Origin: Candidatus Limnocylindrales bacterium
GTDB taxonomy: Bacteria > Chloroflexota > Limnocylindria > Limnocylindrales > CSP1-4
Length of the DNA stretch: 37,449 nucleotides
NCBI GenBank assembly: GCA_036257225.1
Contig: DATAFZ010000042.1
Location: 1 to 37,449, forward strand
Reading direction: 5' to 3'
Shown here: positions 6,134-26,366 of the stretch, piece after piece
Numbering within the stretch: the stretch's first letter is position 1
How the letters are laid out: the number at the start of each line of letters is the position of its first letter
Program-made: the position numbers and the translations under genes
Notes under the pieces: generated by a model
What the model saw: only the letters and a program-made list of their open reading frames with translations
What the model was told of the DNA's origin: nothing
The model's database searches: none

Positions 6134-6136
6134 CGG

Positions 6137-7493: not shown

Positions 7494-7528
7494 CGGGTTC
7501 GGCTCCGGAGGAAAGGCCATCGCTTGGG

Positions 7529-7547: not shown

Positions 7548-7599
7548 GTGCCGTATGATGGAACCTGCAGGACTCCGAATCTAGAACACGAAGGTACCG

Positions 7600-10927: not shown

Positions 10928-13453
10928 TCAGCTCCTGATCCGCGCGTTGTCCGGGTCGAACAGCGGCGTGCTGCCGGCGACCGCGACCGTCACCGGGTAG
11001 CGCTCGCCGAAGTACTCGACGAGGAGCTTGGTACCCTCGACCGCCTGCGCCGGGGGCAGGTACGACATCAGCAGGTGCTTGCCCACGGACGGCCCGGATC
11101 CGGCGCTCGTCACATACGAGCGACGTCCCTTCGCGTCGACCAGCGGGCTGCCGTCCTCGGCGAGGATCGGCTCGCGGCCAAGCATGTAGCGCTTGACGCC
11201 GCTCGTCGACGTGTTGTCGTCGACGGTCAACGTGCACAGGAGCGCGGCCGGCGACGAATCGCGCTTTCGCAGGTACGCCTCGCGACCGACGAAGTCGTCG
11301 TCCTTGACGGTGAGCCGTGCCATCCCGGCCTCGACGAGGTCGAAGTCGAGCTCGAGCTCCGCACCGTGCGCCCGGTAGCCCTTCTCGAGCCGGGACGTCA
11401 CCGCGTACGTGCCGATGCCGACCGGGACGAGCCCGTGCGGCTGGCCGGCTCGCCACAGGGCATCCCAGACGCGGAGGCCCTGCTCGATCGGGACGTAGAT
11501 CTCCCACCCGAGCTCGCCGACGTAGCTGATGCGCGACGAGAGCGTCCGCACGCCGTCGATGTCGACGGTCTTGGACGTCAGGAATGGGAAACCCTTGTGG
11601 CTGATGTCCGCGCGGCCGTCCGCCGCCGCGCCGAGGATGTCGCGCGCACGCGGGCCCCACAGCCCGAACGTGGTGAACGCGTTGGTCACGTCGTGCAGTT
11701 GCGCGGACCCGTCGGCCGGCATCGCGTCCTGGAAGATCTTCCGATCGCGCATCCCCATGCCGCCGCCGGTCACGACCCGGAAGCGGTCGTGGGCCAGCCG
11801 CATCACGGTCAGATCCGCCAGGATCCCGCCGGCGGCGTTCAGCAGCGGCGTATAGACGGTCCGGCCGGGGGCAACGTCGACGCGATTGACGCAAAGGCGC
11901 TCGAGTGCGGCCAAGGCGCCGGGTCCGGTGATGTCGAAGATCGCGAACGCGGACAGGTCGACAAGCCCGGCACGGTCACGCATCGCGAGGTGCTCGGCGT
12001 TGATGATCGGCGACCACCAGCGCGAGTCCCACTCGGCCTCGCGCGGCATCACCCGGTCGCCGTACTCGCCGAGGAGGCCCTCGTTCGTGCCGTACCAGTA
12101 CGGCCGCTCCCAGCCCGCCGCCTCGAAGAACTCGGCGCCGAGCTCGACGTGGCGCTCGTAGGCCGGCGACAGCCTGATCTTGCGGTTGGAGGCCCACTGC
12201 TCCATCGGATGGACGATGCCGTAGGTCTTGTTGAACCCCTCGGTCGTGCGCGCCGCGATGTGCTGCGCGGTCTTGTGATGGTCGTAGAACCGGGCGACAT
12301 CCGACCCGTGCGGGTCGATCTCCGGCTCGCCGGTGGTCATCCACTCGGCTAACGCCTTGGCGATGCCCGGCGCCTCCTTGATCCAGATCGCCGCGGCCGA
12401 CCAGAGCCCCTTGACCTCCGGTGTCTCGCCGATGATCGGGTTGCCGTCCGGCGTGAGCGACAGTAGGCCGTTGATCGCCAGCTTCACGCCGACCGATTCG
12501 TCGCCGACGATCTCGGGAAAGAGCTCGAGCGCATCCTCGAGCTGCGGATCGAAGTCCTCCTGGGTGAACGGCAGCATGGTCGGCGACAGGGCCGACGCCT
12601 CGATCGACGGGATGTCATCGGCTTCCATCAGGATGGCCCGGTGGGCGTACGAACCGACCTCGAAGCCGGTGCCGTGCTGGCGCTCGTACATGTTGGTGTC
12701 CATGTCGCGGACGATCGGGAAGCCGACCTCCTTGGTCGTGTGCTCGAACTGCGGAACCGGACCGATGTCGATCATCTGGTGGACCGCCGGCGTCAACGGG
12801 ATCGACGCCCCGGCCATACGCGCGATCCGCGGGCTCCACACGCCGCACGCGATGACGACGGTATCGGCGGCGATGTGACCCTGATCCGTGCGAACCCCGC
12901 GCACATGGCCGTCGACGACGTCGACGCCGGTGACCTCGACGCCCGCCGCGACCGTCAGGGCCCCCTTCTGCTGGGCCTTCTCGCGCATGAGCGTCCCGGC
13001 CTGCAGCGAGTCGACGATGCCGACGCCCGGCGTGTAGAAGCCACCGAGGATCACCGACTCGTCGATGAACGGGACCATCTCCTTGACCTCGTCGGGGGTC
13101 AGCAACCGGGACCCCTCGATGCCCCACGAAGTCGACGACGCCATGCGCCGCTTGAGCTCCTCCATCCGCTCGGGGGTGCGGGCGACCTCGATGCCGCCGG
13201 TCTCGTCGTACACGCCCATCTCGCGGTACTGGTTGGCGCTATCGACCGTGAATGCGGTCATCTCCTTCGAGTGGTCGGTCAGGAAGATGAAGTTCGAGGC
13301 ATGGCCGGTGGACCCGCCCGGACTCGGCAGGGGGCCCTTGTCGAGCAGCACGATGTCCTTCCAGCCTTGCTCGGCAAGCTGGTAGGCCATGCTGTTGCCG
13401 ACGATGCCGGCGCCGATGACGACGACGTCCGCTCGCGCCGGGAGCGCGCCCAT
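10928..13453 (-). CDS. Dimethylglycine/sarcosine dehydrogenase-family FAD oxidoreductase with C-terminal GcvT-type folate-binding domain (paralogue 1)
   Basis: The track ORF was trimmed to the ATG at 13453 (MGALPARADVVVIGAGIVGNS, GxGxxG). Conserved His in GGSTGHASNF, the covalent-FAD position in this family. C-terminal aminomethyltransferase fold (SRLEKGYRAHG ... PLFDPDNARIRS). 841 aa. Confidence 0.85.
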   Translation of the reverse strand: MGALPARADVVVIGAGIVGNSMAYQLAEQGWKDIVLLDKGPLPSPGGSTGHASNFIFLTDHSKEMTAFTVDSANQYREMGVYDETGGIEVARTPERMEELKRRMASSTSWGIEGSRLLTPDEVKEMVPFIDESVILGGFYTPGVGIVDSLQAGTLMREKAQQKGALTVAAGVEVTGVDVVDGHVRGVRTDQGHIAADTVVIACGVWSPRIARMAGASIPLTPAVHQMIDIGPVPQFEHTTKEVGFPIVRDMDTNMYERQHGTGFEVGSYAHRAILMEADDIPSIEASALSPTMLPFTQEDFDPQLEDALELFPEIVGDESVGVKLAINGLLSLTPDGNPIIGETPEVKGLWSAAAIWIKEAPGIAKALAEWMTTGEPEIDPHGSDVARFYDHHKTAQHIAARTTEGFNKTYGIVHPMEQWASNRKIRLSPAYERHVELGAEFFEAAGWERPYWYGTNEGLLGEYGDRVMPREAEWDSRWWSPIINAEHLAMRDRAGLVDLSAFAIFDITGPGALAALERLCVNRVDVAPGRTVYTPLLNAAGGILADLTVMRLAHDRFRVVTGGGMGMRDRKIFQDAMPADGSAQLHDVTNAFTTFGLWGPRARDILGAAADGRADISHKGFPFLTSKTVDIDGVRTLSSRISYVGELGWEIYVPIEQGLRVWDALWRAGQPHGLVPVGIGTYAVTSRLEKGYRAHGAELELDFDLVEAGMARLTVKDDDFVGREAYLRKRDSSPAALLCTLTVDDNTSTSGVKRYMLGREPILAEDGSPLVDAKGRRSYVTSAGSGPSVGKHLLMSYLPPAQAVEGTKLLVEYFGERYPVTVAVAGSTPLFDPDNARIRS

Positions 13454-13461
13454 GCAGACCC

Positions 13462-13502
13462 TCCTCCTCCGCCGCATCCAGGGGCGGCGTGCCCGAGGAG
13501 GA
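13462..13502 (-). promoter_or_regulatory. GC-rich stem-loop that sequesters the Shine-Dalgarno of the dehydrogenase gene, or a DNA palindrome operator
   Basis: The mRNA reads UCCUCCUC-GGGCA-CGCCGC-CCCUGGAU-GCGGCG-GAGGAGGA-GGGUCUGC-AUG. That gives 8 + 6 perfect base pairs with a 5-nt bulge, and the 3' arm is the GGAGGAGGA ribosome-binding site. Confidence 0.4.
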
Positions 13503-13601
13503 TACCCGTCCGCCGACCCGGCCTGCGGCCCCCACCCTTGACCCGCCCCGATGCCGGTCGCATCCTCGCGCTCGCTGGGTCCGAGCAGCACGAGGGCATC
13601 C

Positions 13602-15071
13602 GTGGCGAGCCTGTTCATCGACGGCGAGTGGGTCGCGTCCGGCGACGGCACCTGCAGCCCGGTCATCAACCCGAGTGACGCGACACGCGTCACCGAGGTC
13701 GACGTTGCGACCGACGCGCAGGTCCAGGCGGCGATCGCCGCCGCGCGCCGGGCGTTCGACGCGACCGACTGGCCCCGGTCCCCGGCCTCTGAGCGGGCTG
13801 CGCTGCTCGACCGCGTCGCCGATCTGCTCGATCGCGACCTTGAGGATCTCGCTCGTGCCGAGACGCTGAACACCGGCAAGGCCATGCGCGAGAGCCGTGC
13901 CGACATCGCCGACGTGATCCGCGTCTTCCGCTACTACGCCGACTTGGCTGGCGATAAGGCTGAGCGCCCCGTCGACAGCGGTGAACCAAATGCCCTGAGT
14001 CGGATCGTCTATGAGCCGGTCGGCGTCTGCGGGCTGATCGGGCCGTGGAACTACCCGCTCCTGCAGCTGTCCTGGAAGATCGCGCCCGCACTGGCAGCCG
14101 GCTGCACGGCTGTGATGAAGCCCGCGCATCTCACGCCGCTCACGGCGATCCACTTGACCCGGCTCCTGGAGGAGGCCGGCGTGCCGCGCGGCGTCGTCAA
14201 TCTCGTGTTGGGCACCGGCGAGCGAGTCGGTCAGGCGCTGGCCGATTCGCCCGATGTGGACCTGATCTCGCTGACCGGCGGCATCGACGCCGCGCGGTCG
14301 CTGTTGCGCGGGGCCGCCGTCAACGTCAAGCGGGTCGCCCTCGAGCTCGGCGGCAAGAGCCCCAACATCGTCTTCGCCGACGCGGACTTCGAGACGGCCG
14401 TCGACAACGCCCTGACCGCGGCGTTCATCCACTCCGGCCAGGTGTGCTCCGCTGGCTGCCGGGTGATCGTGGAAGCGAGCGTCCACGACGACTTCGTCGC
14501 GGCGGTCGCCGAGCGCGCCGAGCGAATCCGCCTGGGTCACGGCATGGACGACCGCACCCAGACCGGCGCGCTCATCTCGGCCGAGCACCGCGCCAAGGTC
14601 GAGGCGCACGTCGCCGATGCTCTCGCCGCTGGCGCCCGGCTCGTGGCCGGCGGTCGCAGGCCGGACGATCCCGAGCTGCAGGACGGCTTCTTCTACCGAC
14701 CGACCGTGTTCACCGACGTCCGGGCTGACATGCGGGTCGTGCGCGAGGAGGTGTTCGGCCCGGTCATGACCATCGAGCGGTTCACCACGGAGGACGAGGC
14801 CATCGAGCTGGCCAACGCCACCGACTACGGGCTCGCCGGCGCGGTCTGGACCGTCGACGCATCTCGAGCGCAGCGCGTCGCCGGCCGGCTCCGGGCCGGC
14901 ACGGTCTGGATCAACGACTACAACCGCTACGTGCCGCAGGCGGAATGGGGCGGCTTCAAACGCTCTGGGATCGGCCGAGAGCTCGGCCCCAGCGGTCTCG
15001 ACGAGTACCGCGAGGCGAAGCACATCTGGCAGAACACGGCGCCCGGTCCGACCGGCTGGTTCTCCGGCTGA
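13602..15071 (+). CDS. gbsA: Glycine betaine aldehyde dehydrogenase (GbsA/BetB type, ALDH superfamily)
   Basis: Close end-to-end resemblance to my recollection of B. subtilis GbsA (LFIDGEWV, NTGK, GPWNYPLLQLSWKIAPALAAG, ELGGKSPNIVF, QVCSAG, PELQDGFFY.PTVF, EEVFGPV, WINDY). GTG at 13602 with GAGGG 5 nt upstream matches the GbsA N-terminus. The track start 13551 is the alternative. Confidence 0.88.
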   Translation: MASLFIDGEWVASGDGTCSPVINPSDATRVTEVDVATDAQVQAAIAAARRAFDATDWPRSPASERAALLDRVADLLDRDLEDLARAETLNTGKAMRESRADIADVIRVFRYYADLAGDKAERPVDSGEPNALSRIVYEPVGVCGLIGPWNYPLLQLSWKIAPALAAGCTAVMKPAHLTPLTAIHLTRLLEEAGVPRGVVNLVLGTGERVGQALADSPDVDLISLTGGIDAARSLLRGAAVNVKRVALELGGKSPNIVFADADFETAVDNALTAAFIHSGQVCSAGCRVIVEASVHDDFVAAVAERAERIRLGHGMDDRTQTGALISAEHRAKVEAHVADALAAGARLVAGGRRPDDPELQDGFFYRPTVFTDVRADMRVVREEVFGPVMTIERFTTEDEAIELANATDYGLAGAVWTVDASRAQRVAGRLRAGTVWINDYNRYVPQAEWGGFKRSGIGRELGPSGLDEYREAKHIWQNTAPGPTGWFSG

Positions 15072-15127: not shown

Positions 15128-16921
15128 CTATTCCGCCGGGATCTCCGCGTGGATCGCGTCGAGGTCGACGCCCTGTGAGCGGCGGTACACCCGGGCGGCG
15201 ATGTAGACGATCGCGGCGAGCCCGTAGAGCACGCCGAGGAAGATGATCGAGTTGGTGTTGCCGACGCCGATGCCGTACAGCGGGTCGGTCAGCCACAGGT
15301 AGATCACGTAGGCCAGGATCACCGTGATGATCAGGCTGGCGATCGTGATCGGGACCTTGAGCCGTGCGATCGGCGAGTTGTCGAAGAGCTGCGGCTTCCA
15401 CCACGGCAGGATGGTGGCCGCGACTGTGCTCCCAAGGAATGTCACGGCGATCACGAGCGTGGCGTCAAGCGTCAGGGCCCGGAAGTCGGCCGAGAACGAA
15501 TAGATCACGCTCACGATGATCGCCGGGATCATGATGAACAGCAGCGCCGTGACCGGGACGCCCCGAGCCTCGGACACCTGGGCCGCCCGCTCCGGCAGGA
15601 TCCTGTCGAACGCAGCCGCGAAGATCATCCGTGTCGACGACAGGAACAGGGTTCCGGACCAGCCCAGGAACCACGCCGCGAACAGCACGACCATCGCGAT
15701 CTGGAAGATCGGTGCGTCGATCAGGTACGACGCGAGGAGCGGCGGGTAGCTCCAGATCGGGACGGTCGGATCGGTCGTCGTGTAGCCATAGAACCAGTTG
15801 ATGAAATTCGCGTTCGTGGCGTTGAAGAACAGCCAGCCGAAGGTCTTGGCCGCTAGCAACACGAACACGATCGCCAGGATCGCGGTCACCCAGATCCCGC
15901 CCAGCATCCCGTTGAGGACCTTGCGGAAGTCGCCCGAGCCACGGACCTCGCCGTAGAGGGTCGAGCCCCAGTTCGGGTACAGGATCCAGAACAGCATGAA
16001 GGGCAGCATCACGACGGCCGCACCCAGCGTGGCGGTCAGGTCCGCGCCCATCGCAAGGGGTTCGAGCGAGCCCGTGAAGGCGTCGTTCACGGCTGCGTCG
16101 GCGATGGTCTTGTCGTACGCGCCGGCGACGCCGAACATCCGCATGTTGGCGGTGTCGAACGCGGCCCGGAACTGGTCCTGCGACGAGACCAGCATCAGCA
16201 CCGCCATGATTCCGAAGCCGATCAGCCCCAGGTACAGGCAGACCCGCTGGATCCGCGCGTAGCCGGCCATGCCGAGGGCGACAAGCCAGGACGTGAGCGC
16301 GATCACGATGAGCGATACGACGAGCGTGCCGGTATCGGAGCCGAAGAAGTCGACCCCTGCCGTGGAGCCCACGAGCGCGGCGAGCGGCTGGAAGAACTCC
16401 AGTTTCAGGATGGCGCCGTAGATCGGCGCCCACAACGCGAGGATGAACCACCAGCCGGTGGCCGCGAGCACGAACCCGATGCCGCCGCGCATGCTGCCGA
16501 TGAACCCGCCGGCGACCAGGCCCACGACCCCCGCGACGAGCGCGAGCGTGCCGTCCAGCGCCAGCGCGTTGGCAACCAGATAGAACGCGACGCCGCCGGT
16601 GATCGCGCCGGTGGCGATGCCGGGCAGCCCGTCGAGGACGCGCGTCTGCCAGACATAGTCGCCCCCGGCACGCGGCATCACCGCGATCAGCGCCGCGTAT
16701 GCCACGGCCAGGAACGTGACCGCGATCGCGGCGATGAGGATCGATAGCACCGGCGACGCCGTCGGAACGTAGGCGAATACCGCGAGGCTGTAGAACATGC
16801 CCAGCGTGACGAGGTTGACCGACATGAACGAGTAGGTGAACGCGTCGAACGCGGACCAGCCCTTGACGAGTCCCGTCGCATTCCTGAGGAAGAGCGACGG
16901 GGACGCAGTGCCAGTTGCCAT
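15128..16921 (-). CDS. APC-superfamily permease (amino acid/organocation; candidate choline or betaine-related importer)
   Basis: The track ORF 15128..18064 was trimmed to the ATG at 16921 (MATGTASPSLFLRNATGLVKGWSAFDAFTYSFMSV...). About 12-14 hydrophobic segments over 597 aa. GGAGG lies 5 nt upstream. Confidence 0.8.
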   Translation of the reverse strand: MATGTASPSLFLRNATGLVKGWSAFDAFTYSFMSVNLVTLGMFYSLAVFAYVPTASPVLSILIAAIAVTFLAVAYAALIAVMPRAGGDYVWQTRVLDGLPGIATGAITGGVAFYLVANALALDGTLALVAGVVGLVAGGFIGSMRGGIGFVLAATGWWFILALWAPIYGAILKLEFFQPLAALVGSTAGVDFFGSDTGTLVVSLIVIALTSWLVALGMAGYARIQRVCLYLGLIGFGIMAVLMLVSSQDQFRAAFDTANMRMFGVAGAYDKTIADAAVNDAFTGSLEPLAMGADLTATLGAAVVMLPFMLFWILYPNWGSTLYGEVRGSGDFRKVLNGMLGGIWVTAILAIVFVLLAAKTFGWLFFNATNANFINWFYGYTTTDPTVPIWSYPPLLASYLIDAPIFQIAMVVLFAAWFLGWSGTLFLSSTRMIFAAAFDRILPERAAQVSEARGVPVTALLFIMIPAIIVSVIYSFSADFRALTLDATLVIAVTFLGSTVAATILPWWKPQLFDNSPIARLKVPITIASLIITVILAYVIYLWLTDPLYGIGVGNTNSIIFLGVLYGLAAIVYIAARVYRRSQGVDLDAIHAEIPAE

Positions 16922-16925
16922 GTGT

Positions 16926-16953
16926 CCCTCCTGATCCCTCCTGATCCCCCTCC
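16926..16953 (-). repeat. Tandem 10-nt repeat creating three in-phase Shine-Dalgarno cores in front of the permease gene
   Basis: Plus strand reads CCCTCCTGAT CCCTCCTGAT CCCCCTCC. The mRNA reads GGAGGGGG-AUCAGGAGGG-AUCAGGAGGG-ACAC-AUG. Confidence 0.6.
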
Positions 16954-16971
16954 GAACCTGGATCGGTCGTG

Positions 16972-17910
16972 TCAGCCGTTGATCAGCAGATAGCGCTTCA
17001 CCTCGCCTTTCTTCACGTCGAGGTCGACGATCGCCGCCTGGAGCACGCCATCCTCGTAGGTGCTTCCCGGGTTGACGGCGAGGGTGCGGCCGATCTTCAC
17101 GGCTCCTCGCCCTTCGTGGATGTGACCGTGGAGCGACAGCATCGGCCCGTATGCGCTGATCGCATCGCGCACGGCGTGCGATCCGACCGGCACCAGCGCC
17201 TGACCGCCCGCTACGTATTTGAGATCGGCATCGAGCTGCGGCGCCGAATCGAGGTTCGATCCATACGGCGGAGCGTGGAAGTTGAAGATCGACCGCCGTG
17301 GATCGGGGACTTCGGCGACCAGACCGTCGATCCGTGCACGCAGCTCGTCTTCGGGTAGCTCGCGGAACGTCTTCCACGGCGTCGGATTCGCCCAGCCCGT
17401 CGATACGAGCGAGATGCCATCGAGGGCGATGGTGTTCGCCTCGCCGAGCTCGACGAGGCGAGCCGCCGCGATGATCGGGTCGATCTCGAACATGTCGTCG
17501 TTGGCCGGCGACACGATGCAGCGGATGCCCTTGCCTTCCAGCCGCTCGTCGGCGAGGGCCATCCAGCGCTCGACGTTGCGCAGCATCTCGTTCTTGAACC
17601 GCGCGTCGACCAATGACTCGTCGGCGCTCCACGCGTCCAGCTCGTCGGGCTCGAGGCGGACCGGGTAATAGCCGCGGTCCGAGATGCGCTTCTCCATCGC
17701 CTGGAGCTCGTCCTCGGTCGCCAGCAGGTGGCGCTGTTCCTGGAGCGTCACCTCCCAGCCACCGTCGCGGTGGACGATCGGGACCATCGCCTTCCCCGTC
17801 ATGTCGCCGCCCATGATCAGGACGTCCGCCTTGTGGAATGCGCCGGCGTTGAGGAACTTGCGCCAGCAGACCTCGGAGCCGTGGACGTCGGTGGCGAAGA
17901 AGATCCTCAT
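16972..17910 (-). CDS. Calcineurin-like metallophosphoesterase (COG2129-like)
   Basis: Trimmed to the ATG at 17910 (MRIFFATDVHGS). All metallophosphoesterase motifs are readable: DVHG, GGDMTGK, SPANDD, NFHAPPYG, LHGHIHEG. ATGA overlap with the upstream nucleotidyltransferase gene. Confidence 0.8.
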   Translation of the reverse strand: MRIFFATDVHGSEVCWRKFLNAGAFHKADVLIMGGDMTGKAMVPIVHRDGGWEVTLQEQRHLLATEDELQAMEKRISDRGYYPVRLEPDELDAWSADESLVDARFKNEMLRNVERWMALADERLEGKGIRCIVSPANDDMFEIDPIIAAARLVELGEANTIALDGISLVSTGWANPTPWKTFRELPEDELRARIDGLVAEVPDPRRSIFNFHAPPYGSNLDSAPQLDADLKYVAGGQALVPVGSHAVRDAISAYGPMLSLHGHIHEGRGAVKIGRTLAVNPGSTYEDGVLQAAIVDLDVKKGEVKRYLLING

Positions 17911-18734
17911 AGCGCCCGGTGCTCCATCTCCTCGGGCTCCGCATACCACGTGACGCGTTCGCCGACGCGGGCCCGGAGCTTCCAACGCGTCGACTTGGGT
18001 GCCGCCTCGATCGCGTTGCGCAACCCGGCCACCTGCGCGGACGGGTCGAATTTGATCGCCTCACCCGTGCCCAGGTCGAGGTCGTCGGGTTGGAGGTCCG
18101 TGGTCAGGAACTGGTCGAGCTTGTCGAGGTTGCCCGAGACGGTCCGCCACCATCCCCAGTCGTTTGACGTGACGTCGATGATGCGCGGCACGTTGATCGC
18201 GCCCGGACCGTGCAGCGCGTCGACCCCGTCGTCCTGGGCGAGCGGGTGCTCCGCCAGCAGGATCAGCGCATCGAGGACGTCCTTGCGGTTGATCTTCACG
18301 ACCTGGAGCTTCGACAGCAGGAGCTCAGCGAGAGGCAGCGTCGGCTTCGACTTGGCCAGCCGTGCCCCGAATTCGACGCGGTGGCACATCTCGAGCGCAT
18401 CGACCAGCACGTCGACCGGCCGCTTGCGCGGCACATCCACGAAATACGCCTGCTTCTGGCCGAACAGCGCGTTCTGCTGTCGATCGGGCGTGTAGCCCTC
18501 CGCCTCGAGCAGCTTGTAGACCGCCGAGCGATCCCGCGACGTGGTCGCGAAGTCGAGGTCGACTTCCGTGCGTCGGGTCCGTGCCGGCCAGCGTGGCGCG
18601 TGGGCGCGGATGGCCATCCCGCCCATCAATCGGAGGATCAGGCCGCGCGAATCGGCGACCTCGACGAGCCGGAGCGATTCCTCCAGCGGATCCGCGAGGG
18701 TCGTGGTTGCACCGGTGACGGGCTCGCTGGCCAT
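17907..18734 (-). CDS. Nucleotidyltransferase-fold protein, AbiEii/MenT (DUF1814)-like or NTP_transf_5-like
   Basis: Trimmed to the ATG at 18734 (MASEPVTG...). Pol-beta NTase pattern LRLMGGMAIRAH...RRTEVDLDFAT, plus a third motif SKLQVVKINRKDVLDALILL that resembles KxxAxxxRxxxRDxxD of AbiEii toxins. 275 aa. Confidence 0.5.
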   Translation of the reverse strand: MASEPVTGATTTLADPLEESLRLVEVADSRGLILRLMGGMAIRAHAPRWPARTRRTEVDLDFATTSRDRSAVYKLLEAEGYTPDRQQNALFGQKQAYFVDVPRKRPVDVLVDALEMCHRVEFGARLAKSKPTLPLAELLLSKLQVVKINRKDVLDALILLAEHPLAQDDGVDALHGPGAINVPRIIDVTSNDWGWWRTVSGNLDKLDQFLTTDLQPDDLDLGTGEAIKFDPSAQVAGLRNAIEAAPKSTRWKLRARVGERVTWYAEPEEMEHRAL

Positions 18735-18864
18735 CACCCTCCTCTTGGCCGCGCTGGCTCCCTCGGGAGCGGCGTGCGACGGAGTATAGGTGGTCGAATC
18801 CACCATCTCGGCACGGATCGCGGAGCGCGACGCGCGATCGAACGCCCGTATCCTGACCGGCACC

Positions 18865-21327
18865 ATGCGGACACCGCGCGTCGCGATCATCGGAGCGGGC
18901 ATCGTCGGCTGCTCGCTGGCCGACGAGCTGGCGCTGCGCGGCTGGTCGGACGTCACGGTCGTCGAGCAGGGCGGCCTCTTCAAGACCGGCGGCTCGACCT
19001 CGCATGCACCAGGGATCATCTTCCAGACCAACGCCTCGAAGACGATGACCGGCTTCGCCCGCTACTCCGTCGAAAAGGCGGCATCACTCAAGCTGGATGG
19101 CCGCTGGTGCTGGAACCCCGTCGGCAGCCTGGAGCTGGCACTCACGCCGGAACGCCTCGCCGAGCTGCATCGTCGCCGCGACTTTGCCGAGTCGTGGGGA
19201 CTGGACGGCCGCGTCATCGATCCCGACGAGACGGCGAAGTTGTGGCCCCTCGTCGATCGCGACAGGATCCTCGGCGCCTACCACCTGCCCTCGGACGGGC
19301 TGACCGACGCCGTCCGGGTGTCGGAGGCGCAGGCGCGACGTGCGACGGAGGGCGGCGCTCGGTTCCTCGCCGAGCACACGGTGACCGCCATCGAGACGGA
19401 CGACGGCCGTGTCCGTGGCGTCATCACCGATCGCGGCGATATCCCGGCTGACATCGTCGTCTGCGCCGCCGGCATCTGGGGACCGCGCATCGGGGCGATG
19501 GTCGGCATGACCGTCGCACTCCAGCCGCTGGCCCACCAGCTGAGCTGGACCACGGTCCTCCCCGAGGTCCTCGCCTTCCGGATCCCGCCGGAGCGCGAGG
19601 CCATCCACCCGAATATCCGTGTCCAGGACCGCGACATGTACTTCCGCGAATACCCGGATCGGCTGGCGGTCGGTGGGTACGGACACGTGCCGCTGCCGGT
19701 CGACGCGGCCGATCTTCTTCACCCACGGGATGCCCCGGTCATGCCGTCGGTGCTCGAGTTCACCCCGGACACGTTCGCCGAGACCTGGTCGTGGGCTGAG
19801 GACCTGGTCCCGGCCCTTCGTGCACCAGAGGCCCGCATCGACCGCGCGATCAACGGCATCTTCTCCTTCACACCTGATGGCTTCCCCTTGCTGGGCGAGT
19901 CGCGCGACGTCGCGGGCTTCTGGCTCGCGGAGGCGGTGTGGGTCACCCACGCGCTCGGTGTCGGCCGGGCGATGGCGGAGTGGCTTGTCGACGGTGGCTC
20001 CACCACCGACCTCCACGAATGCGACCTCAACCGGTTCGAGGCGCATCAGGTCTCTCCCTCGTACATCCACGACCGGGGCATCCAGAACTACGTCGAGGTC
20101 TACGACATCGTCCATCCGCTCCAGCCGATGGAGGACCCCCGACCGATCCGGACCTCGCCCTTCTACGAGCGGGAGCAGGAGCTCGGCGCGTACTTCCTGG
20201 AGGGCGGCGGATGGGAGCGCCCGCACTGGTTCGGTGTCAATGAGCGACTCCTGGGCCGCTACGGCGGCGAGATCCCCGGTCGGAATGCGTGGGCGGCCCG
20301 GTACTGGCATCCGATCGCCGGCGCCGAGGCCAAGGCGACGCGCGACGGCGTCGCGATGTTCGACGTGACCCCGCTCAAGCGGATCGCCGTGGAGGGGCCC
20401 GGTGCCGCGGCGTTCCTGGACAAGGTGACGACGAACCGGATCGATCGTCCGGTCGGGACCGTCGTGTACAGCCTCATGCTCGACAAGCGCGGCGGGGTCC
20501 GCAGCGACCTGACCGTAGCGCGCCTGGCGCCCGACCGCTTCCAGGTCGGCGCCAACGGTCCGCTCGATCTCGATGAGCTGACCCGTCGCGCACCGCGGGA
20601 CGGCTCTGTGGTCGTCCGCGACATCACGAGCGGCACATGCTGCATCGGGCTGTGGGGTCCGCGAGCCCGCGACGTCCTCGCCTCGGTCACGGACGAGGAC
20701 GTATCGAACGAGGCATTCGGCTACTTCCGCGCGCGCGAGCTATGGGTCGGGACCGTGCCGGTGACGGCGCTCCGGGTGTCGTACGTCGGGGAGCTCGGTT
20801 GGGAGCTGTATACGACTGCCGACATGGGGCAGAAGCTGTGGGACACGCTCTGGCGGGCCGGCCAGGAGCATGGCGTCATCGCCGCCGGACGGAGCGCATT
20901 CGGATCGCTGCGGCTGGAGAAGGGCTACCGGCTGTCCGGGGTCGATATGACGACCGAGCACGATCCGTTCGAGGCGGGCCTCGGGTTCGCCGTGCGCATG
21001 GACAAGGGCGATTTCGTCGGGCGTGATTGGCTCGTCGGCCGGAACGAGGCCACAGTAGTGCGACGCCTCGTGCCGCTGATCATCAGCGACCGGCAAGCCG
21101 TCGTGATGGGCAAGGAGCCCGTGCACGTCGACGGCCGCCCGGCGGGCTACGTCACGAGTGCCGGATATGGCTACTCCGTGGACGCGCCGATCGCGTTGGC
21201 GTGGCTCCCGTCGGACGCTGCCCGCGTCGGCCAGCAGGTTTCGATCCGCTACTTCGGTGAGGCCGTCCCGGCGACCGTCGCAGCCGATCCACTGTTCGAC
21301 CCGGAGATGCGCCGGGTACGCGGTTGA
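18865..21327 (+). CDS. Dimethylglycine/sarcosine dehydrogenase-family FAD oxidoreductase with GcvT-type folate-binding domain (paralogue 2)
   Basis: MRTPRVAIIGAGIVGCS (GxGxxG), GGSTSHAPGI His motif, C-terminal LRLEKGYRLSG ... PLFDPEMRRVRG. The alternative start, GTG 18790, has GGAG 5 nt upstream and would add 25 aa. Confidence 0.85.
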   Translation: MRTPRVAIIGAGIVGCSLADELALRGWSDVTVVEQGGLFKTGGSTSHAPGIIFQTNASKTMTGFARYSVEKAASLKLDGRWCWNPVGSLELALTPERLAELHRRRDFAESWGLDGRVIDPDETAKLWPLVDRDRILGAYHLPSDGLTDAVRVSEAQARRATEGGARFLAEHTVTAIETDDGRVRGVITDRGDIPADIVVCAAGIWGPRIGAMVGMTVALQPLAHQLSWTTVLPEVLAFRIPPEREAIHPNIRVQDRDMYFREYPDRLAVGGYGHVPLPVDAADLLHPRDAPVMPSVLEFTPDTFAETWSWAEDLVPALRAPEARIDRAINGIFSFTPDGFPLLGESRDVAGFWLAEAVWVTHALGVGRAMAEWLVDGGSTTDLHECDLNRFEAHQVSPSYIHDRGIQNYVEVYDIVHPLQPMEDPRPIRTSPFYEREQELGAYFLEGGGWERPHWFGVNERLLGRYGGEIPGRNAWAARYWHPIAGAEAKATRDGVAMFDVTPLKRIAVEGPGAAAFLDKVTTNRIDRPVGTVVYSLMLDKRGGVRSDLTVARLAPDRFQVGANGPLDLDELTRRAPRDGSVVVRDITSGTCCIGLWGPRARDVLASVTDEDVSNEAFGYFRARELWVGTVPVTALRVSYVGELGWELYTTADMGQKLWDTLWRAGQEHGVIAAGRSAFGSLRLEKGYRLSGVDMTTEHDPFEAGLGFAVRMDKGDFVGRDWLVGRNEATVVRRLVPLIISDRQAVVMGKEPVHVDGRPAGYVTSAGYGYSVDAPIALAWLPSDAARVGQQVSIRYFGEAVPATVAADPLFDPEMRRVRG

Positions 21328-21542
21328 CCCCGCAAATACCCGCCGAGCCGCTATCGCGCTGGATACGCGGCGTTAACAAAGTCATCACATGGTCTTGACG
21401 CCCCGCGATGCGAGAGGTGGAATGCAGCGACACCGGAGGGCGGCCCAGAGATCGACCCGCATCCGGGCGTGATCCGAGCATGAGGAGGGCTCGGGTCGGG
21501 GTCCACCGCGAACCGTTACCGCATGGATCTGGAGGAGGCACG

Positions 21543-22745
21543 TTGACCACGAAACGAAACCTGACCCGCTGGGCGGGTCTCTCAGCCGCATCGGCCGTCC
21601 TGATCGCAGCTTGTTCGACACCGGCCGCGACGACCGCTCCGTCGGTCGCGCCGCCAGCAAGCGTCGCGCCGTCCGAAAGCGCGGCCGCATCGGAGTCGGC
21701 GGCCGCCGGCGGCTTCGAACAGTTCGTACCCGACCAGGCGATGCTCGACGCCGCCAAGGCCGAGGGCACCGTCACGACCATCGCTCTGCCGCACGACTGG
21801 TGCAACTACGGCGAGACCATCAGCACGTTCAAGGAGCGGACCGGCCTCGAGGTCAACGAGCTCGACCCGAATGCCGGCTCGGGCGACGAGATCGAGGCCA
21901 TCAAGGCCAACAAGGACAACCCCGGCCCGTCCGCGCCGGACGTGATCGACGTCGGCCTGTCGTTCGGTCCGTCGGCCAAGGAGGAGGGTCTCCTGCAGGC
22001 GCACAAGGTCGCGACGTGGGACACGATCCCCGAATCGGCCAAGGATGCCGAGGGCTTCTGGTGGGGCGACTACTACGGCGTCCTTGCCTTCGAGGTCAAC
22101 ACCGCGGTCGTCCCGAACGTGCCCCAGGACTGGGCTGACCTGCTCAAGCCCGAGTACAACGGGCAGGTCGCCCTGGCAGGTGACCCGCGAACCTCGAACC
22201 AGGCCATCCAGGCCGTCTACGCGGCCGCCCTCGCCAACGGCGGGTCGCTCGACAATGCGCAGCCGGGCCTCGACTTCTTCAAGCAGCTCAACGACTCGGG
22301 CAACCTGCGCCCGATCATCGCCACCGCGGCGACGGTCGCCGCCGGCGAGACCCCGATCACCATCCGCTGGACCTACAACGCGCTGTCGAATCGTGACACC
22401 ACGGCCGCCAGCGGCGGCCCCGAGATCGCGGTCGTCGTGCCGGCGTCAGGCCGGTTTGCGGGCGTCTATGTCCAGGGCATCAGCGCCTTCGCGCCGCATC
22501 CCAACGCGGCGAAGCTGTGGCAGGAGTTCCTCTACAGCGACGAGGGCCAGAACGTCTGGCTGAAGGGCTACTGCCACCCGATCCGCTACGAGAATCTCGT
22601 GTCGGAGAACAAGGTGCCGCAGGAGCAGCTCGACAAGCTGCCGGACGTCGAGGGTGCGGTCTTCCCCACCCTCGACCAGCTCAACAAGGCGACCGAGCTC
22701 ATCACCACGGGCTGGGATAGCACGGTCGGAGCCAACATCCAGTAG
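21543..22745 (+). CDS. ABC transporter substrate-binding lipoprotein (family-1, PotD/AfuA-like)
   Basis: TTG at 21543 lies 4 nt after GGAGGAGG. Lipoprotein signal TTKRNLTRWAGLSAASAVLIAAC. The body ends with FAPHPNAAKLWQEFLYSDEGQ, typical of the polyamine/iron/thiamine-type binding-protein cluster. Confidence 0.85.
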   Translation: MTTKRNLTRWAGLSAASAVLIAACSTPAATTAPSVAPPASVAPSESAAASESAAAGGFEQFVPDQAMLDAAKAEGTVTTIALPHDWCNYGETISTFKERTGLEVNELDPNAGSGDEIEAIKANKDNPGPSAPDVIDVGLSFGPSAKEEGLLQAHKVATWDTIPESAKDAEGFWWGDYYGVLAFEVNTAVVPNVPQDWADLLKPEYNGQVALAGDPRTSNQAIQAVYAAALANGGSLDNAQPGLDFFKQLNDSGNLRPIIATAATVAAGETPITIRWTYNALSNRDTTAASGGPEIAVVVPASGRFAGVYVQGISAFAPHPNAAKLWQEFLYSDEGQNVWLKGYCHPIRYENLVSENKVPQEQLDKLPDVEGAVFPTLDQLNKATELITTGWDSTVGANIQ

Positions 22746-22769
22746 CGCCCGTCCATCGACGAGGTCACC

Positions 22770-23669
22770 GTGGCGGACGTCGCTGCGGTCCGGGAGCAGG
22801 AGGCGCGGATCGCGCCTCCTGCTCCGTCACGCCTGAGCTGGTCCTGGCTAGGCCTCGTTCCCTTCTTCCTGTTCTGTACCGCGTTCCTGTTCCTGCCGGT
22901 GGCGTTCCTCGTCATCGGCAGCTTCAACGATCGCGCGGGCAACCTGACCCTGCAGAACTACGCGGACCTCTCCACTGGGATCATCCCCGGCGCGTTCGCC
23001 AACAGCATCGAGGTCAGTCTCGTCACGGCGGTCGCCGGTGGGGTCTTCGGGTTCCTGCTCGCGGCGTCAGTCGTCCTGGGTGGGCTACCGCGAGTACTGC
23101 GAAGCGGGCTGATGACCTTCTCGGGCGTGGCATCGAACTTCGCCGGCATCCCGCTCGCGCTGGCGTTCATCTTTACGCTCGGCACGCTCGGGTTCCTGAC
23201 CACGCTGCTGCAGAGCCTCGGCTTGACAGGCTTCCGAGGGGTCAATCTCACGTCCAAGCTGGGCGTCGAAGTGGTGTACATGTACTTCCAGTTCCCGCTG
23301 ATGGTGCTGATCATCGCGCCGGCCCTGGAGGGACTGCGCCGCGAGTGGCGGGAGGCAGCCGAGAACATGGGCGCGTCGGCGTTCCAGTACTGGCGCCATG
23401 TCGCACTACCGATCCTGACGCCGTCGATCCTCGGGGCCATGATCCTGCTGTTCGGGAACTCGTTCGGGGCGCAGGCAACGGCCTTCCAGCTGACCGGCGG
23501 GACGCTACCGCTCGTCACGCTCGTGATCAGCTCACAGATCCGCGGTGACGTGCTGCACAACCCTGGACTCGGCTACGCGATGTCGATGGGGATGGTCGTG
23601 ATCATGGGCATGTCGATCCTGCTGTACACGCTGTTACAGCGGCGGGCTGAACGGTGGCTCCGGTCATGA
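22770..23669 (+). CDS. ABC transporter permease
   Basis: GTG start. Six predicted TM segments, PotB/MalF-type inner-membrane component. Confidence 0.85.
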   Translation: MADVAAVREQEARIAPPAPSRLSWSWLGLVPFFLFCTAFLFLPVAFLVIGSFNDRAGNLTLQNYADLSTGIIPGAFANSIEVSLVTAVAGGVFGFLLAASVVLGGLPRVLRSGLMTFSGVASNFAGIPLALAFIFTLGTLGFLTTLLQSLGLTGFRGVNLTSKLGVEVVYMYFQFPLMVLIIAPALEGLRREWREAAENMGASAFQYWRHVALPILTPSILGAMILLFGNSFGAQATAFQLTGGTLPLVTLVISSQIRGDVLHNPGLGYAMSMGMVVIMGMSILLYTLLQRRAERWLRS

Positions 23670-24505
23670 CGACCGCGACGGCGACAGCCGCGCAAGGCGC
23701 TCGCCGCCGACGCCGCGGCTTCGGCGCGTGGTGGGCGTGGGTCGTCTTCATCCTCGGTGCGCTGTACTTCATCCTGCCGCTGATCGGCGTCTTCGCCCAC
23801 TCGATCAGGACGCGGCCCGACATCTTCCTGGCGTATCGCCAGGTCTTCGCTGACCCCGCGTTCTTCCGCGGGCTCGGCTACTCGTTCCTCGCCGGGCTGC
23901 TGACCGTCGTCATCAGCCTGCTGATCATCGTGCCGACCGCGTACTGGGTCCGGCTTCGCGTCCCGCAGCTGCGGCCGGTCGTCGAGTTCGTGACGCTGAT
24001 GCCGTTCGTGATCCCGCCGGTCGTGCTCGCGTTCGGCCTGATCCGCATCTACAGCCAGGGGCCCGTCCGCCTGGCAAGCACGGACACGGGACTCAACGTG
24101 ATGCTCGTCGGGGCCTACGTCGTGCTGTCGTTCCCGTACATGTATCGCGCGGTCGATACCGGCCTCGCCGCCATCGACGTCCGCACGCTCACCGAGGCCG
24201 CGCAGAGCCTCGGTTCAGGCTGGGCGCGCATCCTCTCCCGCGTCATCTTCCCGAACCTGCGGACGTCGCTGTTGTCGGGGGCCTTCCTCACGCTCGCCAT
24301 CGTGATCGGCGAGTACACGATCGCCCAGGTGCTCGCCCGGACCACCGCGTTCGCGCCGTACCTGTCGCTGCTCGGGCGAAACCAGCCATACCAGCCTGCC
24401 GCCGTCTCGCTCATCAGCTTCGGGCTGACCTGGCTGGCGATGATCTTGATCGCGTTCCTCGGCCGTGGCTCGCGCACGCGGGTCCAGGTCGCGGGCGCCC
24501 GTTAG
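23666..24505 (+). CDS. ABC transporter permease
   Basis: ATG at 23666 in an ATGA overlap with the preceding permease (the track start is GTG 23654). Six TM segments, PotC/MalG-type. Confidence 0.85.
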   Translation: MTTATATAAQGARRRRRGFGAWWAWVVFILGALYFILPLIGVFAHSIRTRPDIFLAYRQVFADPAFFRGLGYSFLAGLLTVVISLLIIVPTAYWVRLRVPQLRPVVEFVTLMPFVIPPVVLAFGLIRIYSQGPVRLASTDTGLNVMLVGAYVVLSFPYMYRAVDTGLAAIDVRTLTEAAQSLGSGWARILSRVIFPNLRTSLLSGAFLTLAIVIGEYTIAQVLARTTAFAPYLSLLGRNQPYQPAAVSLISFGLTWLAMILIAFLGRGSRTRVQVAGAR

Positions 24506-24516
24506 GAGGGGATCGG

Positions 24517-25638
24517 ATGGCGTTCCTCGAGCTCGAAGGGGTCCGCAAGGAATTCGCCGACACGGTCGCGGTCGAGGGCTTCGACCTGGTGGCCGATAAG
24601 GGCGAATTCGTGTCCTTCCTCGGGCCGTCCGGCTGCGGCAAGACGACCACGCTGCGGATGATCGCCGGGTTCGAGCTGCCCACCGCCGGGTCGATCCGGA
24701 TCGATGGGACGGACGTGACGAACCGCCCGCCCAACCGCCGCAACGTCGGCATGGTGTTCCAGTCATATGCGCTGTTCCCGAACATGACCGTGGCCGACAA
24801 CATCGGGTTCGGGTTGAAGGTCCGGGGCCGACCGAGGGACCAGATCAAGCAGCGCGTCGGGGAGCTCCTCGACCTCATCCATCTCGGCGGACGCGGTGAG
24901 CGCTTCCCGTGGCAGCTGTCCGGTGGACAGCAGCAGCGCGTGGCGCTCGCCCGCGCGCTCGCGATCGAACCGCAGGTGCTGCTGCTCGACGAGCCGCTCT
25001 CGGCGCTCGACGCCAAGATCCGCATCGCCCTGCGCCACCAGATTCGGTCGATCCAGCGCCAGCTCGGCATCACGACGGTGTACGTGACCCATGACCAGGA
25101 GGAGGCCCTTTCGCTGTCCGACCGGGTCGTCGTGATGAGCGATGGCCGCATCGAGCAGATCGGCGCCCCCGCCGACATCTACAACTTCCCGGCCACCCGT
25201 TTCGTGGCGTCGTTCGTGGGCACCCTGAACCTGCTCGACGCCCGGGTCGTCGAGGCATCGACGGGTCGGGTGTCCGTGGCCGGCCAGGAGATCCGCACCG
25301 GTGTGGCGGTCGACACTGGCCACGATGGATCGGAGGCGACCGTCGCGATCCGGCCCGAGGGAATCGAGCTCGGCACCGATGGCGGCACGAACCGGCTGAC
25401 CGGCACGGTCGAGGACGTGAGCTTCCTGGGCTCGATCGTCCGGACTCGCCTTCGGCTTCACGAAGACGGGACGACGCTCTCGCTCGACACATTCAATGAC
25501 CCCAACCTCATGCCGCCCTCGATCGACACCGCGGTGACCGTGTCGTTCCCGCCCGAGGCATGCCTCGTGCTCGCCCGACCGACCGCGGTGGCGGCGGAGC
25601 AACGCGACGCGGTCGCCGCCGCGGAGGCGTTGCTGTAG
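24517..25638 (+). CDS. ABC transporter ATP-binding protein (PotA/UgpC-like with C-terminal TOBE-type domain)
   Basis: Walker A GPSGCGKTT, signature LSGGQQQRVALARAL, Walker B LLLDEPLSALD, H-loop YVTHDQ. Confidence 0.9.
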   Translation: MAFLELEGVRKEFADTVAVEGFDLVADKGEFVSFLGPSGCGKTTTLRMIAGFELPTAGSIRIDGTDVTNRPPNRRNVGMVFQSYALFPNMTVADNIGFGLKVRGRPRDQIKQRVGELLDLIHLGGRGERFPWQLSGGQQQRVALARALAIEPQVLLLDEPLSALDAKIRIALRHQIRSIQRQLGITTVYVTHDQEEALSLSDRVVVMSDGRIEQIGAPADIYNFPATRFVASFVGTLNLLDARVVEASTGRVSVAGQEIRTGVAVDTGHDGSEATVAIRPEGIELGTDGGTNRLTGTVEDVSFLGSIVRTRLRLHEDGTTLSLDTFNDPNLMPPSIDTAVTVSFPPEACLVLARPTAVAAEQRDAVAAAEALL

Positions 25639-26366
25639 CCGCGACCGGCGGACCGGTCGACCTGACCGGCATCGACGCCGTCATCTTCGACAAGGACGGC
25701 ACGCTTATCGACTTCCACGCGATGTGGGGCGGCTGGGCGCGCCAGCTCGGCGAGCGGCTGGACGCGACGATCCGCCGACCGGTCTCGCTCGACGTGTTCG
25801 CGACGATCGGCTTCGATCCCACGACCGGGCGGGTGGCGCCCGGCGGCCCGCTGGCGACCTCGACGATGGCCGGGATCGAGGAGACCGTCGCGCGCGTTCT
25901 GCGGCGCTGGTGCCCGAGCATCGCCGCCGCCCGTCGCGCGACCGAGGCAGCGTGGTTCGTACCCGATCCGGCGACATCGGCGGTGCCGCTCGCGGACCTC
26001 CGAACGATCTTCGATCGACTCAGGACGAGCGGCCGGCGGATCGCGATCGTCACGACCGATGATCGCGCGCCGACGGACGCCGCGCTCCGCGCACTGGGCA
26101 TCCGCGAGCGGGTCGAGGCGATCGTCTGTGGTGACGACGGGTTCGACGTCAAGCCCGCGCCTGATGCGGTGTTCGCGGTGTGTCATGCCTTCCGGATAGA
26201 GCCCGCTCGGGTCGCCGTCGTCGGCGATACCCCGACCGACCTGGCGATGGCGCGGACCGCCGGTGCCGGACGGGTCGTCGGGGTGCGCAGCGGCCTCGGT
26301 AGCGATGCCGACCTCGCGTCGGCCGACGCGATCATCGATTCGATCGGGGACCTGCTGACGAGCTAG
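25560..26366 (+). CDS. HAD-superfamily hydrolase (phosphatase-like); start codon uncertain
   Basis: Motif I VIFDKDGTL, motif II IAIVTTDD, motif IV VVGDTPTDLAMA. The only ATG/GTG/TTG upstream of motif I is the ATG at 25560, 79 nt inside the ATPase gene. Confidence 0.75.
   Translation: MPRARPTDRGGGGATRRGRRRGGVAVAATGGPVDLTGIDAVIFDKDGTLIDFHAMWGGWARQLGERLDATIRRPVSLDVFATIGFDPTTGRVAPGGPLATSTMAGIEETVARVLRRWCPSIAAARRATEAAWFVPDPATSAVPLADLRTIFDRLRTSGRRIAIVTTDDRAPTDAALRALGIRERVEAIVCGDDGFDVKPAPDAVFAVCHAFRIEPARVAVVGDTPTDLAMARTAGAGRVVGVRSGLGSDADLASADAIIDSIGDLLTS

Follow-up and report, generated by a model that had tools for sequence, protein, structure and literature searches.

Does a minimal nucleotidyltransferase whose gene overlaps that of a hydrolase have to be half of a toxin-antitoxin pair, or can it belong to the metabolism of its host? 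This question is raised by a locus of a Candidatus Limnocylindrales bacterium (Chloroflexota; Limnocylindria; Limnocylindrales; CSP1-4), found in the middle of a 37,449-nucleotide stretch of DNA (contig DATAFZ010000042.1 of GenBank assembly GCA_036257225.1, positions 1 to 37,449) that was analyzed as a whole and is referred to here as the window. The locus encodes a nucleotidyltransferase-like protein (NTase), a calcineurin-like metallophosphoesterase (MPE), and, as the third gene, a divergent permease of the APC superfamily. The original prediction, made from the DNA letters alone, saw in the first two genes a tRNA-modifying toxin of the AbiEii/MenT type with an enzymatic, reversing antitoxin or, alternatively, a module that liberates choline from phosphoesters. 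The analysis described here indicates that the genes very probably form a metabolic and transport module and not a toxin-antitoxin system. We regard the module as a catabolic uptake operon with uncharacterized accessory enzymes, undescribed in the literature searched.

Linkage of the three genes was traced by scanning one genome per species with 13 NTase sequences, which yielded 594 relatives. The best 80 loci, in which NTase identity ranges from 93 to 40%, were analyzed by tblastn with the NTase (N), MPE (M), and permease (A) of the window. All three genes occur together in 65 of the 80 loci, so the expectation that the NTase and MPE remain neighbors in other genomes was borne out. They are arranged in at least five gene orders: N>M>A, as in the window (40 loci), M<A<N (15), A>M>N (7), M>A>N (2), and A<M<N (1). 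The NTase gene of the M<A<N loci is divergent from the permease gene, and catabolic genes fill the 0–5 kb that separate A from M; four further loci read A<N, the NTase again being divergent from the permease. Incomplete loci are mostly contig ends; about six with adequate flanks have the NTase alone, its gene diverging from that of an Amidohydro_3 protein in five cases. Remoter metagenomic relatives (L085 and L086) have an MPE or permease gene adjoining that of the NTase. Linkage extends to a cultured archaeon, Halobellus limi (strain CGMCC 1.10331), which reads IclR, Fe-alcohol dehydrogenase (Fe-ADH), aldehyde dehydrogenase > MPE > NTase > < APC permease; the accessions of its proteins are WP_103992469 (MPE), WP_160113950 (NTase), and WP_103992470 (permease). 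In Thermomicrobium roseum (NC_011961, L089), the locus lacks an NTase gene and reads APC > MPE > double CN-hydrolase. The last of these genes (L089 12969–14777) was considered as a candidate NTase fusion and ruled out, its 602-amino-acid product carrying the CN-hydrolase domain twice in tandem. A nucleotidyltransferase-domain protein and a HEPN protein, which make up a pair of the MNT-HEPN type and are unrelated to the module, are encoded 0.5 kb beyond it.

Two types of module differ in the genes that surround them. Type A, found in this window, other Limnocylindrales, Acidimicrobiia, and other Actinomycetota, has aldehyde dehydrogenase, dimethylglycine dehydrogenase (DMGDH)-like, and MttB neighbors, and in Actinomycetota also a GMC oxidoreductase gene divergent from NTase>MPE>APC>Aldedh; by family assignment, these are choline-oxidation genes. 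Type B neighbors comprise hydantoinase A/B, Amidohydro_3, amidase, CN-hydrolase, creatinase-like M24, HDAC-like amidohydrolase, arginase-family, and M20 proteins. Judged from the amidase, hydantoinase, and arginase-type genes around type B, the module is not specific for choline. The idea of a choline-linked module beside the permease holds for the genomic context only, with GMC or Fe-ADH and aldehyde dehydrogenase genes present in Actinomycetota and Halobellus. A census of the 113 nearest non-trio neighbors in 62 loci returned Amidohydro_3 (9), Aldedh (8), SBP (8), and DAO (7), followed by Amidase, HDAC-like, GMC, and M24/creatinase (4 each), the top Pfam families all being catabolic or transport families. 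The single PADLOC match among these 113 neighbors was a WYL domain. Whether the pair travels with defense islands or with choline genes, as had been asked, is answered by this census in favor of catabolism and transport.

Conservation of the genes is that of ordinary chromosomal residents. Identity to the closest genomes is 91–93% for the NTase, 95–96% for the MPE, 94% for the permease, 87–91% for the aldehyde dehydrogenase, and 86% for the DMGDH-like enzyme; within the order, the NTase and MPE thus equal or exceed the last two of these neighbors in conservation. At greater distances, groups were compared by mean pairwise identities between them. The MPE of type A Chloroflexota is 55% identical to that of type A Actinomycetota and 43% identical to that of type B Chloroflexota, and the corresponding values for the permease are 51 and 22%, whereas those for the NTase are 43 and 57%. 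Hence, the MPE and permease appear to co-vary with module type, while the NTase appears to track the host lineage, and because of this the core unit would consist of the MPE and permease, with the NTase as a frequent, substrate-independent accessory. Decoupled histories, unlike those of a co-evolving toxin-antitoxin pair, together with conservation equal to that of housekeeping neighbors and synteny with metabolic genes across two bacterial phyla and one archaeon, argue against a toxin-antitoxin or mobile defense system.

The NTase carries the hallmarks of an enzyme. In 85 diverse relatives (33–78% identity), no variation is seen at G38, D59, D61, H118, K142, Q144, D155, W193, G194, W251, R254, G258, and W263, and D108, conserved in at least 90% of the relatives, makes up the pol-beta triad with D59 and D61. 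The pol-beta signature that had been noticed in the 275-residue protein is confirmed in this way: motifs I and II (hG[GS]x9-13Dh[DE]h plus a further acidic residue) are present as G38-G39, D59-x-D61, and D108. The conserved triad marks the protein as a predicted enzyme, a minimal pol-beta NTase that is catalytically intact by its motifs and possesses a C-terminal helical domain of its own. These two motifs are common to all pol-beta NTases and do not discriminate for AbiEii/MenT. A helix with the pattern K142-L-Q144...K151-D152-x-x-D155 is also conserved, and a likeness to motif III of DUF1814 was seen by eye. The DUF1814 family is defined by four motifs, the fourth of which is unique to it (PMC7450476). 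Motif IV was not identified in the NTase by such inspection.

Family assignment points away from the toxins. The NTase matches PF14907 (NTP_transf_5) with 17.5 bits (E 0.0033) over residues 22–150 only, below the gathering cut-off of 31.2; 64 of the 85 relatives match this family at E<0.01 (best E 2e-8), and several close homologs bear a precomputed PF14907 label. It is best seen, on these profile scores, as a divergent, peripheral or sister subfamily of PF14907. PF10706 (ANT(2'')) is matched by 3 of the 85 relatives. PF08843 (AbiEii) gives no match to the window NTase at E<=1 and matches one of the 85 relatives (E 0.004); NCBIfam contains no match for the NTase or the permease, and PADLOC none for the NTase. 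Run against PDB sequences, the family profile finds ANT(2'')-Ia first (E 0.006) and LnuA (E 0.065), over the N-terminal 60–70 residues, and no MenT or AbiEii chain. Placement in the AbiEii/MenT family could not be upheld by these searches, and the NTase, by its profile, is no demonstrable member of DUF1814. Of the three families against which the pair was to be compared, PF08843 is absent and PF14907 sub-threshold, and only Metallophos (PF00149) is matched, by the MPE.

Structural comparison retains part of the predicted likeness to MenT. With an AlphaFold2 (AF2) model of the NTase (pLDDT 92.4) as the query, Foldseek ranks MenT1 (8an4) at the top of the PDB matches, although this match is marginal (E 6e-4, TM 0.37/0.52) and on a par with those of ANT(2'')-Ia, LnuA, and a fungal NTase-like protein (5uvd); CdnE (CD-NTase) is among the weak matches (rank 4, TM 0.27). 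What stands is a minimal pol-beta NTase with MenT1 as its first match, and what does not stand is a preference for MenT over the small-molecule enzymes. The matches to MenT1, 5uvd, ANT(2'')-Ia, and LnuA cover only approximately the first 170 residues, and the C-terminal domain of ~100 residues, with its invariant Trp and Arg, is matched by no structure. NTase homologs number 2,015; at 50% identity, the family forms 1,983 clusters, 319 of them at E<=1e-30.

Fusion proteins offer a further clue to the role of the NTase. It is found fused to a MarR/IclR-type winged-helix DNA-binding domain (P0293), to a Roadblock/LC7-like domain (P0322, weak), and to phosphoribosyltransferase (PRTase) domains (P0342, with an MPE preceding it), partners that suggest a function in regulation or one linked to nucleotides. 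Locus L087 (3548–5547) contains two tandem NTase paralogs that adjoin a radical-SAM gene, the first of which bears a MarR/IclR-type winged helix; neither an MPE nor a permease gene lies within its 5.5-kb contig.

In the MPE, all five metal-binding motifs described in the original prediction are intact: D8-x-H10, G35-D36, N137-D138-D139, H212, and G262-H263-x-H265 do not vary among 13 relatives (42–81% identity), and motif III reads (A/G)NDD, not GNHD/E. The score against PF00149 (26.2 bits, cut-off 21.5) places the protein in this family, and that against PF14582 (Metallophos_3; 19.7 bits over the C-terminal third only, cut-off 28.2) leaves it outside the latter. It is, by these motifs, a calcineurin-like metallophosphoesterase with an intact metal site, predicted to be active, and presumably cytoplasmic because no signal peptide was seen on inspection. 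An insert of ~90 amino acids separates motifs II and III. In sequence as well as in structure, aq_1956 (2yvt) and TT1561 (1uf3) are its nearest relatives, with TMq values of 0.50–0.53 for a model of pLDDT 80.8 that was built from a shallow alignment (relatives 79–100% identical). More than 7,700 MPE homologs were found, and some sources label the MPE “Icc-related phosphoesterase.” PADLOC returned only a partial PDC-S10 match on generic MPE motifs. The NTase and MPE profiles are unrelated to each other according to hhalign. An apparent natural NTase-MPE fusion of 621 amino acids (L052 7881–9746) comes from a nanopore metagenome-assembled genome (MAG) and is missing the NTase C-terminus, and was rejected as a probable frameshift. 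A frameshift error is likewise the most likely cause of an MPE split into 220 and 83 amino acids in another nanopore MAG (L001 10866–11805). Type A loci of Actinomycetota contain a second, divergent MPE-like paralog of ~326 amino acids after the aldehyde dehydrogenase gene (Table 1), and the only one scanned, that of L084, has no Pfam match at 1e-4.

The permease weakly exceeds the threshold of PF13520 over the 12-TM core (33.7 bits, cut-off 27, residues 27–541), which places it in the APC superfamily, and it has no sequence match in the PDB. RefSeq names its homologs in Halobellus and Thermomicrobium “APC family permease.”

Our preferred reading of how these proteins work together, which we consider about equally apt to prove right or wrong as a whole, is a conserved chromosomal three-gene uptake module in which the permease imports a phosphoester, the MPE hydrolyzes it, and the NTase is regulatory. 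In type A loci, the compound imported by the permease would be of the choline type, the most plausible candidate being phosphocholine or another zwitterionic phosphoester. This phosphoester would then be hydrolyzed in the cytoplasm by the MPE, providing phosphate as well as choline for the neighboring dehydrogenases of the GMC/Fe-ADH and betaine-aldehyde-dehydrogenase (BADH)-like types. The NTase would take a substrate-independent accessory part, most likely by controlling the module through regulatory nucleotidylylation or by sensing nucleotides. A phosphoester is favored as the substrate because the MPE tracks the permease type and because a transporter and a cytoplasmic phosphohydrolase are paired once more in the window, as a PhnS/PhnT-like ABC importer and a HAD enzyme. 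Taken by itself, action of the MPE on the imported substrate falls somewhat short of an even chance, and a regulatory role of the NTase is a tentative and rather doubtful assignment.

Several points weigh against this proposal. Phosphoester import is not a known activity of APC permeases, and import of plain choline would leave the MPE without an obvious job. The neighbors of type B modules (amidase, hydantoinase, creatinase-like, and arginase-family proteins) suggest no obvious phosphoester, and co-variation of the MPE with the permease could equally mean physical interaction or regulation, e.g., by a protein phosphatase. The nearest structures of the MPE, 2yvt and 1uf3, are themselves uncharacterized, the conserved triad of the NTase gives no pointer to an acceptor, and literature searches found no biochemical datum on any member of the module.

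The alternative that survives best, although unlikely, is a switch in which the NTase would nucleotidylylate (with AMP or UMP) the permease, the MPE, or a small signaling protein, and the MPE would remove the mark as a phosphodiesterase. Such a switch would gate the uptake of nitrogen-rich compounds, much as GlnD and GlnE act on PII and glutamine synthetase. GlnD and GlnE are nucleotidylyl writer-eraser enzymes of nitrogen control, the eraser of GlnD being an HD domain fused to the NTase; they resemble the module in that a pol-beta-fold NTase is paired with phosphohydrolase activity in a context of nitrogen-compound acquisition, but no PII-like target was seen at the module and no sequence relationship was detected. 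Consistent with a switch, the trio is linked whatever the catabolic context, the NTase is often divergent from the permease operon in the manner of a regulator (15 M<A<N and 4 A<N loci), and its fusion partners include winged-helix and Roadblock/LC7-like domains. The invariant Trp/Arg surface of its C-terminal domain is the same in both module types, and co-variation of the MPE and permease fits a physical partnership. However, an NTase that modified the permease or MPE should co-vary with them and does not, T. roseum has the permease and MPE without an NTase at that locus, and neither a modification site nor a PII-like partner was identified. The explanation is drawn purely by analogy.

Direct processing of the substrate in two steps has a lower probability still. 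Here, the NTase would O-nucleotidylylate an imported amino-alcohol, e.g., convert choline to a nucleoside monophosphate (NMP)-choline, and the MPE would cleave the phosphodiester, which would trap or convert the substrate; CDP-choline-type esters are a variant of the same idea. The appeal of this scheme lies in ANT(2'')-Ia (AadB) and LnuA, small-molecule O-nucleotidyltransferases that act on cationic small molecules, share the minimal NTase architecture, provide the best PDB profile matches, and have TM-scores like that of MenT1. The matches of 3 of the 85 relatives to PF10706 and the adjacency of NTase and MPE in most loci fit as well, and the invariant aromatic residues of the NTase could form a cation-binding box. 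Unlike these resistance enzymes, however, the window NTase is ~90 amino acids longer, is matched only weakly and N-terminally, and sits in a catabolic and transport context. It follows the lineage rather than the module type, and the residues that would face a ligand do not change between modules of the choline type and those of the amide type. Furthermore, the cycle would be energetically futile, and type B substrates need carry no hydroxyl. The broader proposition that the NTase and MPE, either as writer and eraser or by making and breaking an NMP-substrate intermediate, control a widespread, unrecognized family of APC importers for choline-type and other nitrogen-rich compounds is rather improbable; if true, solute uptake in haloarchaea and in abundant Chloroflexota and Actinomycetota of soils would be subject to a new form of control, exerted post-translationally or through a covalent intermediate.

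The toxin hypothesis, in which a MenT/AbiEii-like NTase would nucleotidylate tRNA and the MPE would reverse the modification in a DarTG-like toxin-antitoxin or defense pair, is now highly improbable. The window NTase shares with MenT/AbiEii proteins (DUF1814, PF08843) the minimal pol-beta core with hG[GS]...DxD and a third acidic residue, as well as a Lys/Asp-rich helix after the core, the K-L-Q...K-D-x-x-D helix that resembles the C-terminal motif of DUF1814 proteins. The top rank of MenT1 in Foldseek and the ATGA coupling to a hydrolase that could in principle cut phosphodiesters are compatible with a toxin, and lineage tracking would suit a host-wide target such as tRNA. On the other hand, the NTase differs from these toxins in its lack of a PF08843, PADLOC, or family-profile match and in its own ~100-residue C-terminal domain with invariant Trp and Arg. 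No antitoxin-type gene of the AbiEi/MenA kind adjoins it, the neighbors in relatives being MPE, permease, or catabolic genes. It is vertically conserved with the permease, not mobile, and not located in defense islands: homologs are present in none of 50,697 phage records and in one of 72,556 plasmids. In a toxin-antitoxin system, the solitary NTase beside Amidohydro_3 and the MPE without an NTase, both of which occur, would either kill the host or serve no purpose. The family profiles, the neighbors, the near absence from phages and plasmids, the synteny, and the decoupled histories all led us to abandon this part of the original prediction. Finally, a private second-messenger loop, in which the NTase would make a cyclic or linear nucleotide that an Icc/CpdA-like MPE degrades and that gates the permease, is suggested by the “Icc-related” label, the CdnE match, and the nucleotide handling implied by the NTase-PRTase fusion, but is scarcely credible given the poor structural likeness of the NTase to CD-NTases, the lack of a cyclic-nucleotide-binding domain on the permease in Pfam searches, and an MPE nearest to TT1561/aq_1956 rather than to Rv0805/CpdA.

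The layout of the module and its surroundings in the window is summarized in Table 1. The TGA stop codon of the NTase gene (17909–17907) shares bases with the ATG start codon of the MPE gene (17910–17908), so the predicted ATGA overlap can be read directly in the sequence. This 4-nt overlap is restricted to close relatives; elsewhere, the junction varies from a 1-nt overlap to a spacer of ~190 nt, and gene order is variable. An AGGAGG sequence lies 4 nt ahead of the NTase start codon at 18734, and duplication of GGGATCAGGAG in the spacer between MPE and permease creates two Shine-Dalgarno-like GGAGG boxes ahead of the permease ATG. The gap between the NTase start and the divergent DMGDH-like gene is 55 nt if the latter starts at GTG 18790, or ~130 nt if it starts at ATG 18865. 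As had been noted earlier, there is no AbiEi/MenA-type partner open reading frame (ORF) upstream of the NTase, the divergent gap being too short for an antitoxin ORF. No Rfam family (riboswitch or RNA element) was detected at gathering thresholds anywhere in the window.

Table 1. Location of the module, its junctions, and its neighbors in the window; the last row gives positions in the related loci named.
Feature	Position	Strand or orientation	Basis
NTase-like ORF, 275 aa	17907..18734	minus	ORF call and translation
MPE, 312 aa	16972..17910	minus	ORF call and translation
ATGA overlap of NTase stop and MPE start	17907..17910	minus	read directly in sequence
Divergent APC-superfamily permease, 597 aa, third gene of the module	15128..16921	minus	PF13520
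MPE-permease spacer, 50 nt, two tandem copies of GGGATCAGGAG	16922..16971	minus	sequence inspection
Short divergent control region between NTase and DMGDH-like gene	18735..18864	no strand	sequence inspection
Betaine-aldehyde-dehydrogenase-like Aldedh	13551..15071	plus, convergent with permease	PF00171; TIGR01804 BADH 610 bits, cut-off 668.6
DAO+GCV_T dimethylglycine/sarcosine-dehydrogenase-like enzyme	18790..21327	plus, divergent from NTase	domain matches
PhnS/PhnT2-like ABC importer, followed by HAD phosphohydrolase	21408..26366	plus	domain/profile matches
Second MPE-like paralog of type A Actinomycetota loci	L071 10092–11060; L079 10348–11328; L084 11681–12661; L067 14551–15654		

The fraction of G+C at third codon positions (GC3) is 0.83–0.88 for the NTase, MPE, and permease genes, matching that of their neighbors in a window of 69.5% G+C. 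Because of this agreement and the 2,015 NTase and more than 7,700 MPE homologs, the first two are considered true genes on compositional and comparative grounds. The sequence of the window is present in soil metagenome runs, and its homologs are named as Limnocylindrales (soil Chloroflexota). Soil metatranscriptomes contain fragmentary contigs, 88–97% alike, that match portions of the MPE and permease genes including their junction, and one of these contigs covers 16928–17122 (weak). Such matches are weakly compatible with transcription, and with co-transcription of MPE and permease, in situ, and are no proof of either.

The genes around the module belong, by their families, to a choline/betaine/methylamine catabolic island, and the island that had been described around the pair was recovered with its BADH-like aldehyde dehydrogenase, two DMGDH-like genes, electron-transferring flavoprotein (ETF) genes, and MttB/corrinoid set. 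Its predicted route leads from choline via betaine aldehyde, glycine betaine, dimethylglycine, and sarcosine to glycine. The BADH-like gene is syntenic in relatives. The two paralogous dehydrogenases have the domains DAO+FAO_M+GCV_T and comprise the gene listed in Table 1 and one on the minus strand at 10928–13906, next to the ETF genes at 9155–10917. The former is inserted between the NTase gene and the ABC/HAD cluster, which are directly divergent in many Limnocylindrales loci. The binding protein and ATPase of the ABC importer are nearest to the 2-aminoethylphosphonate system, weakly for PhnS and with 420 bits (cut-off 457.7) for PhnT2, and the HAD hydrolase that follows has weak PhnX-like and phosphatase matches; this cluster may be an uptake unit for phospho-amines or phosphonates.

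A complete set for corrinoid-dependent methyl transfer occupies positions 1–8352 and is followed by a divergent IclR regulator. It includes a non-pyrrolysine MttB-family methyltransferase, a RACo activase, a methyl-tetrahydrofolate:corrinoid methyltransferase, a DUF1638 protein, a B12-binding corrinoid protein, and an MTHFR-like protein with a DinB_2 C-terminus that is cut by the window end. Its composition suggests demethylation of quaternary amines of the betaine type in soil Limnocylindrales. On the other side of the module, positions 26480–30757 encode a cytoplasmic protein of 1,425 amino acids that combines four GAF domains with one GGDEF and one EAL domain and whose gene adjoins the ABC/HAD cluster in relatives as well. 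Between 31657 and 36234, long ORFs overlap on both strands, the best candidates (32896–34101 and 34678–36171) being without a Pfam match.

Choline-to-betaine operons such as betTIBA of Escherichia coli and gbsAB of Bacillus subtilis, and the phosphocholine route of Pseudomonas aeruginosa via PlcH and PchP, provide the closest points of comparison for the type A module. In common with the bet and gbs operons, a choline-type transporter gene adjoins those of a choline dehydrogenase or oxidase (GMC or Fe-ADH) and a betaine aldehyde dehydrogenase, but the transporter is a divergent APC permease rather than a BCCT or ABC system. In common with the Pseudomonas route, a phosphohydrolase would yield choline from phosphocholine, PchP being a periplasmic HAD enzyme and the hydrolase of the module a predicted cytoplasmic MPE. 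Neither the NTase nor the MPE has a known counterpart in described choline pathways. At the level of single proteins, PF14907 is the only Pfam family matched by the NTase, although the window protein matches it only in its N-terminal half. The MPE shares a dinuclear metal site with the PF14582 proteins TT1561 and aq_1956, but its ~90-residue insert sets it apart and no function can be transferred from them. PF14907 is mentioned once in the literature searched, as uncharacterized, and the searches found no description of its function or of the NTase-MPE-permease arrangement, in agreement with the original prediction, whose author knew of none.

If the preferred reading of a phosphoester uptake module is true, the locus would represent an unrecognized entry into choline/glycine-betaine catabolism by means of a divergent APC importer and a dedicated cytoplasmic phosphoesterase. 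Its carriers, Limnocylindrales and Acidimicrobiia, are abundant in soils, and metagenomic homologs number in the thousands. The module would also offer a first way into the function of a large uncharacterized family of PF14907-related NTases, in which the contrast between an MPE and permease that follow the substrate context and an NTase that follows the lineage is a testable clue to the division of labor. More generally, a MenT-looking minimal NTase beside a hydrolase need not be a toxin-antitoxin pair, which calls for caution in the automated annotation of defense and toxin-antitoxin systems.

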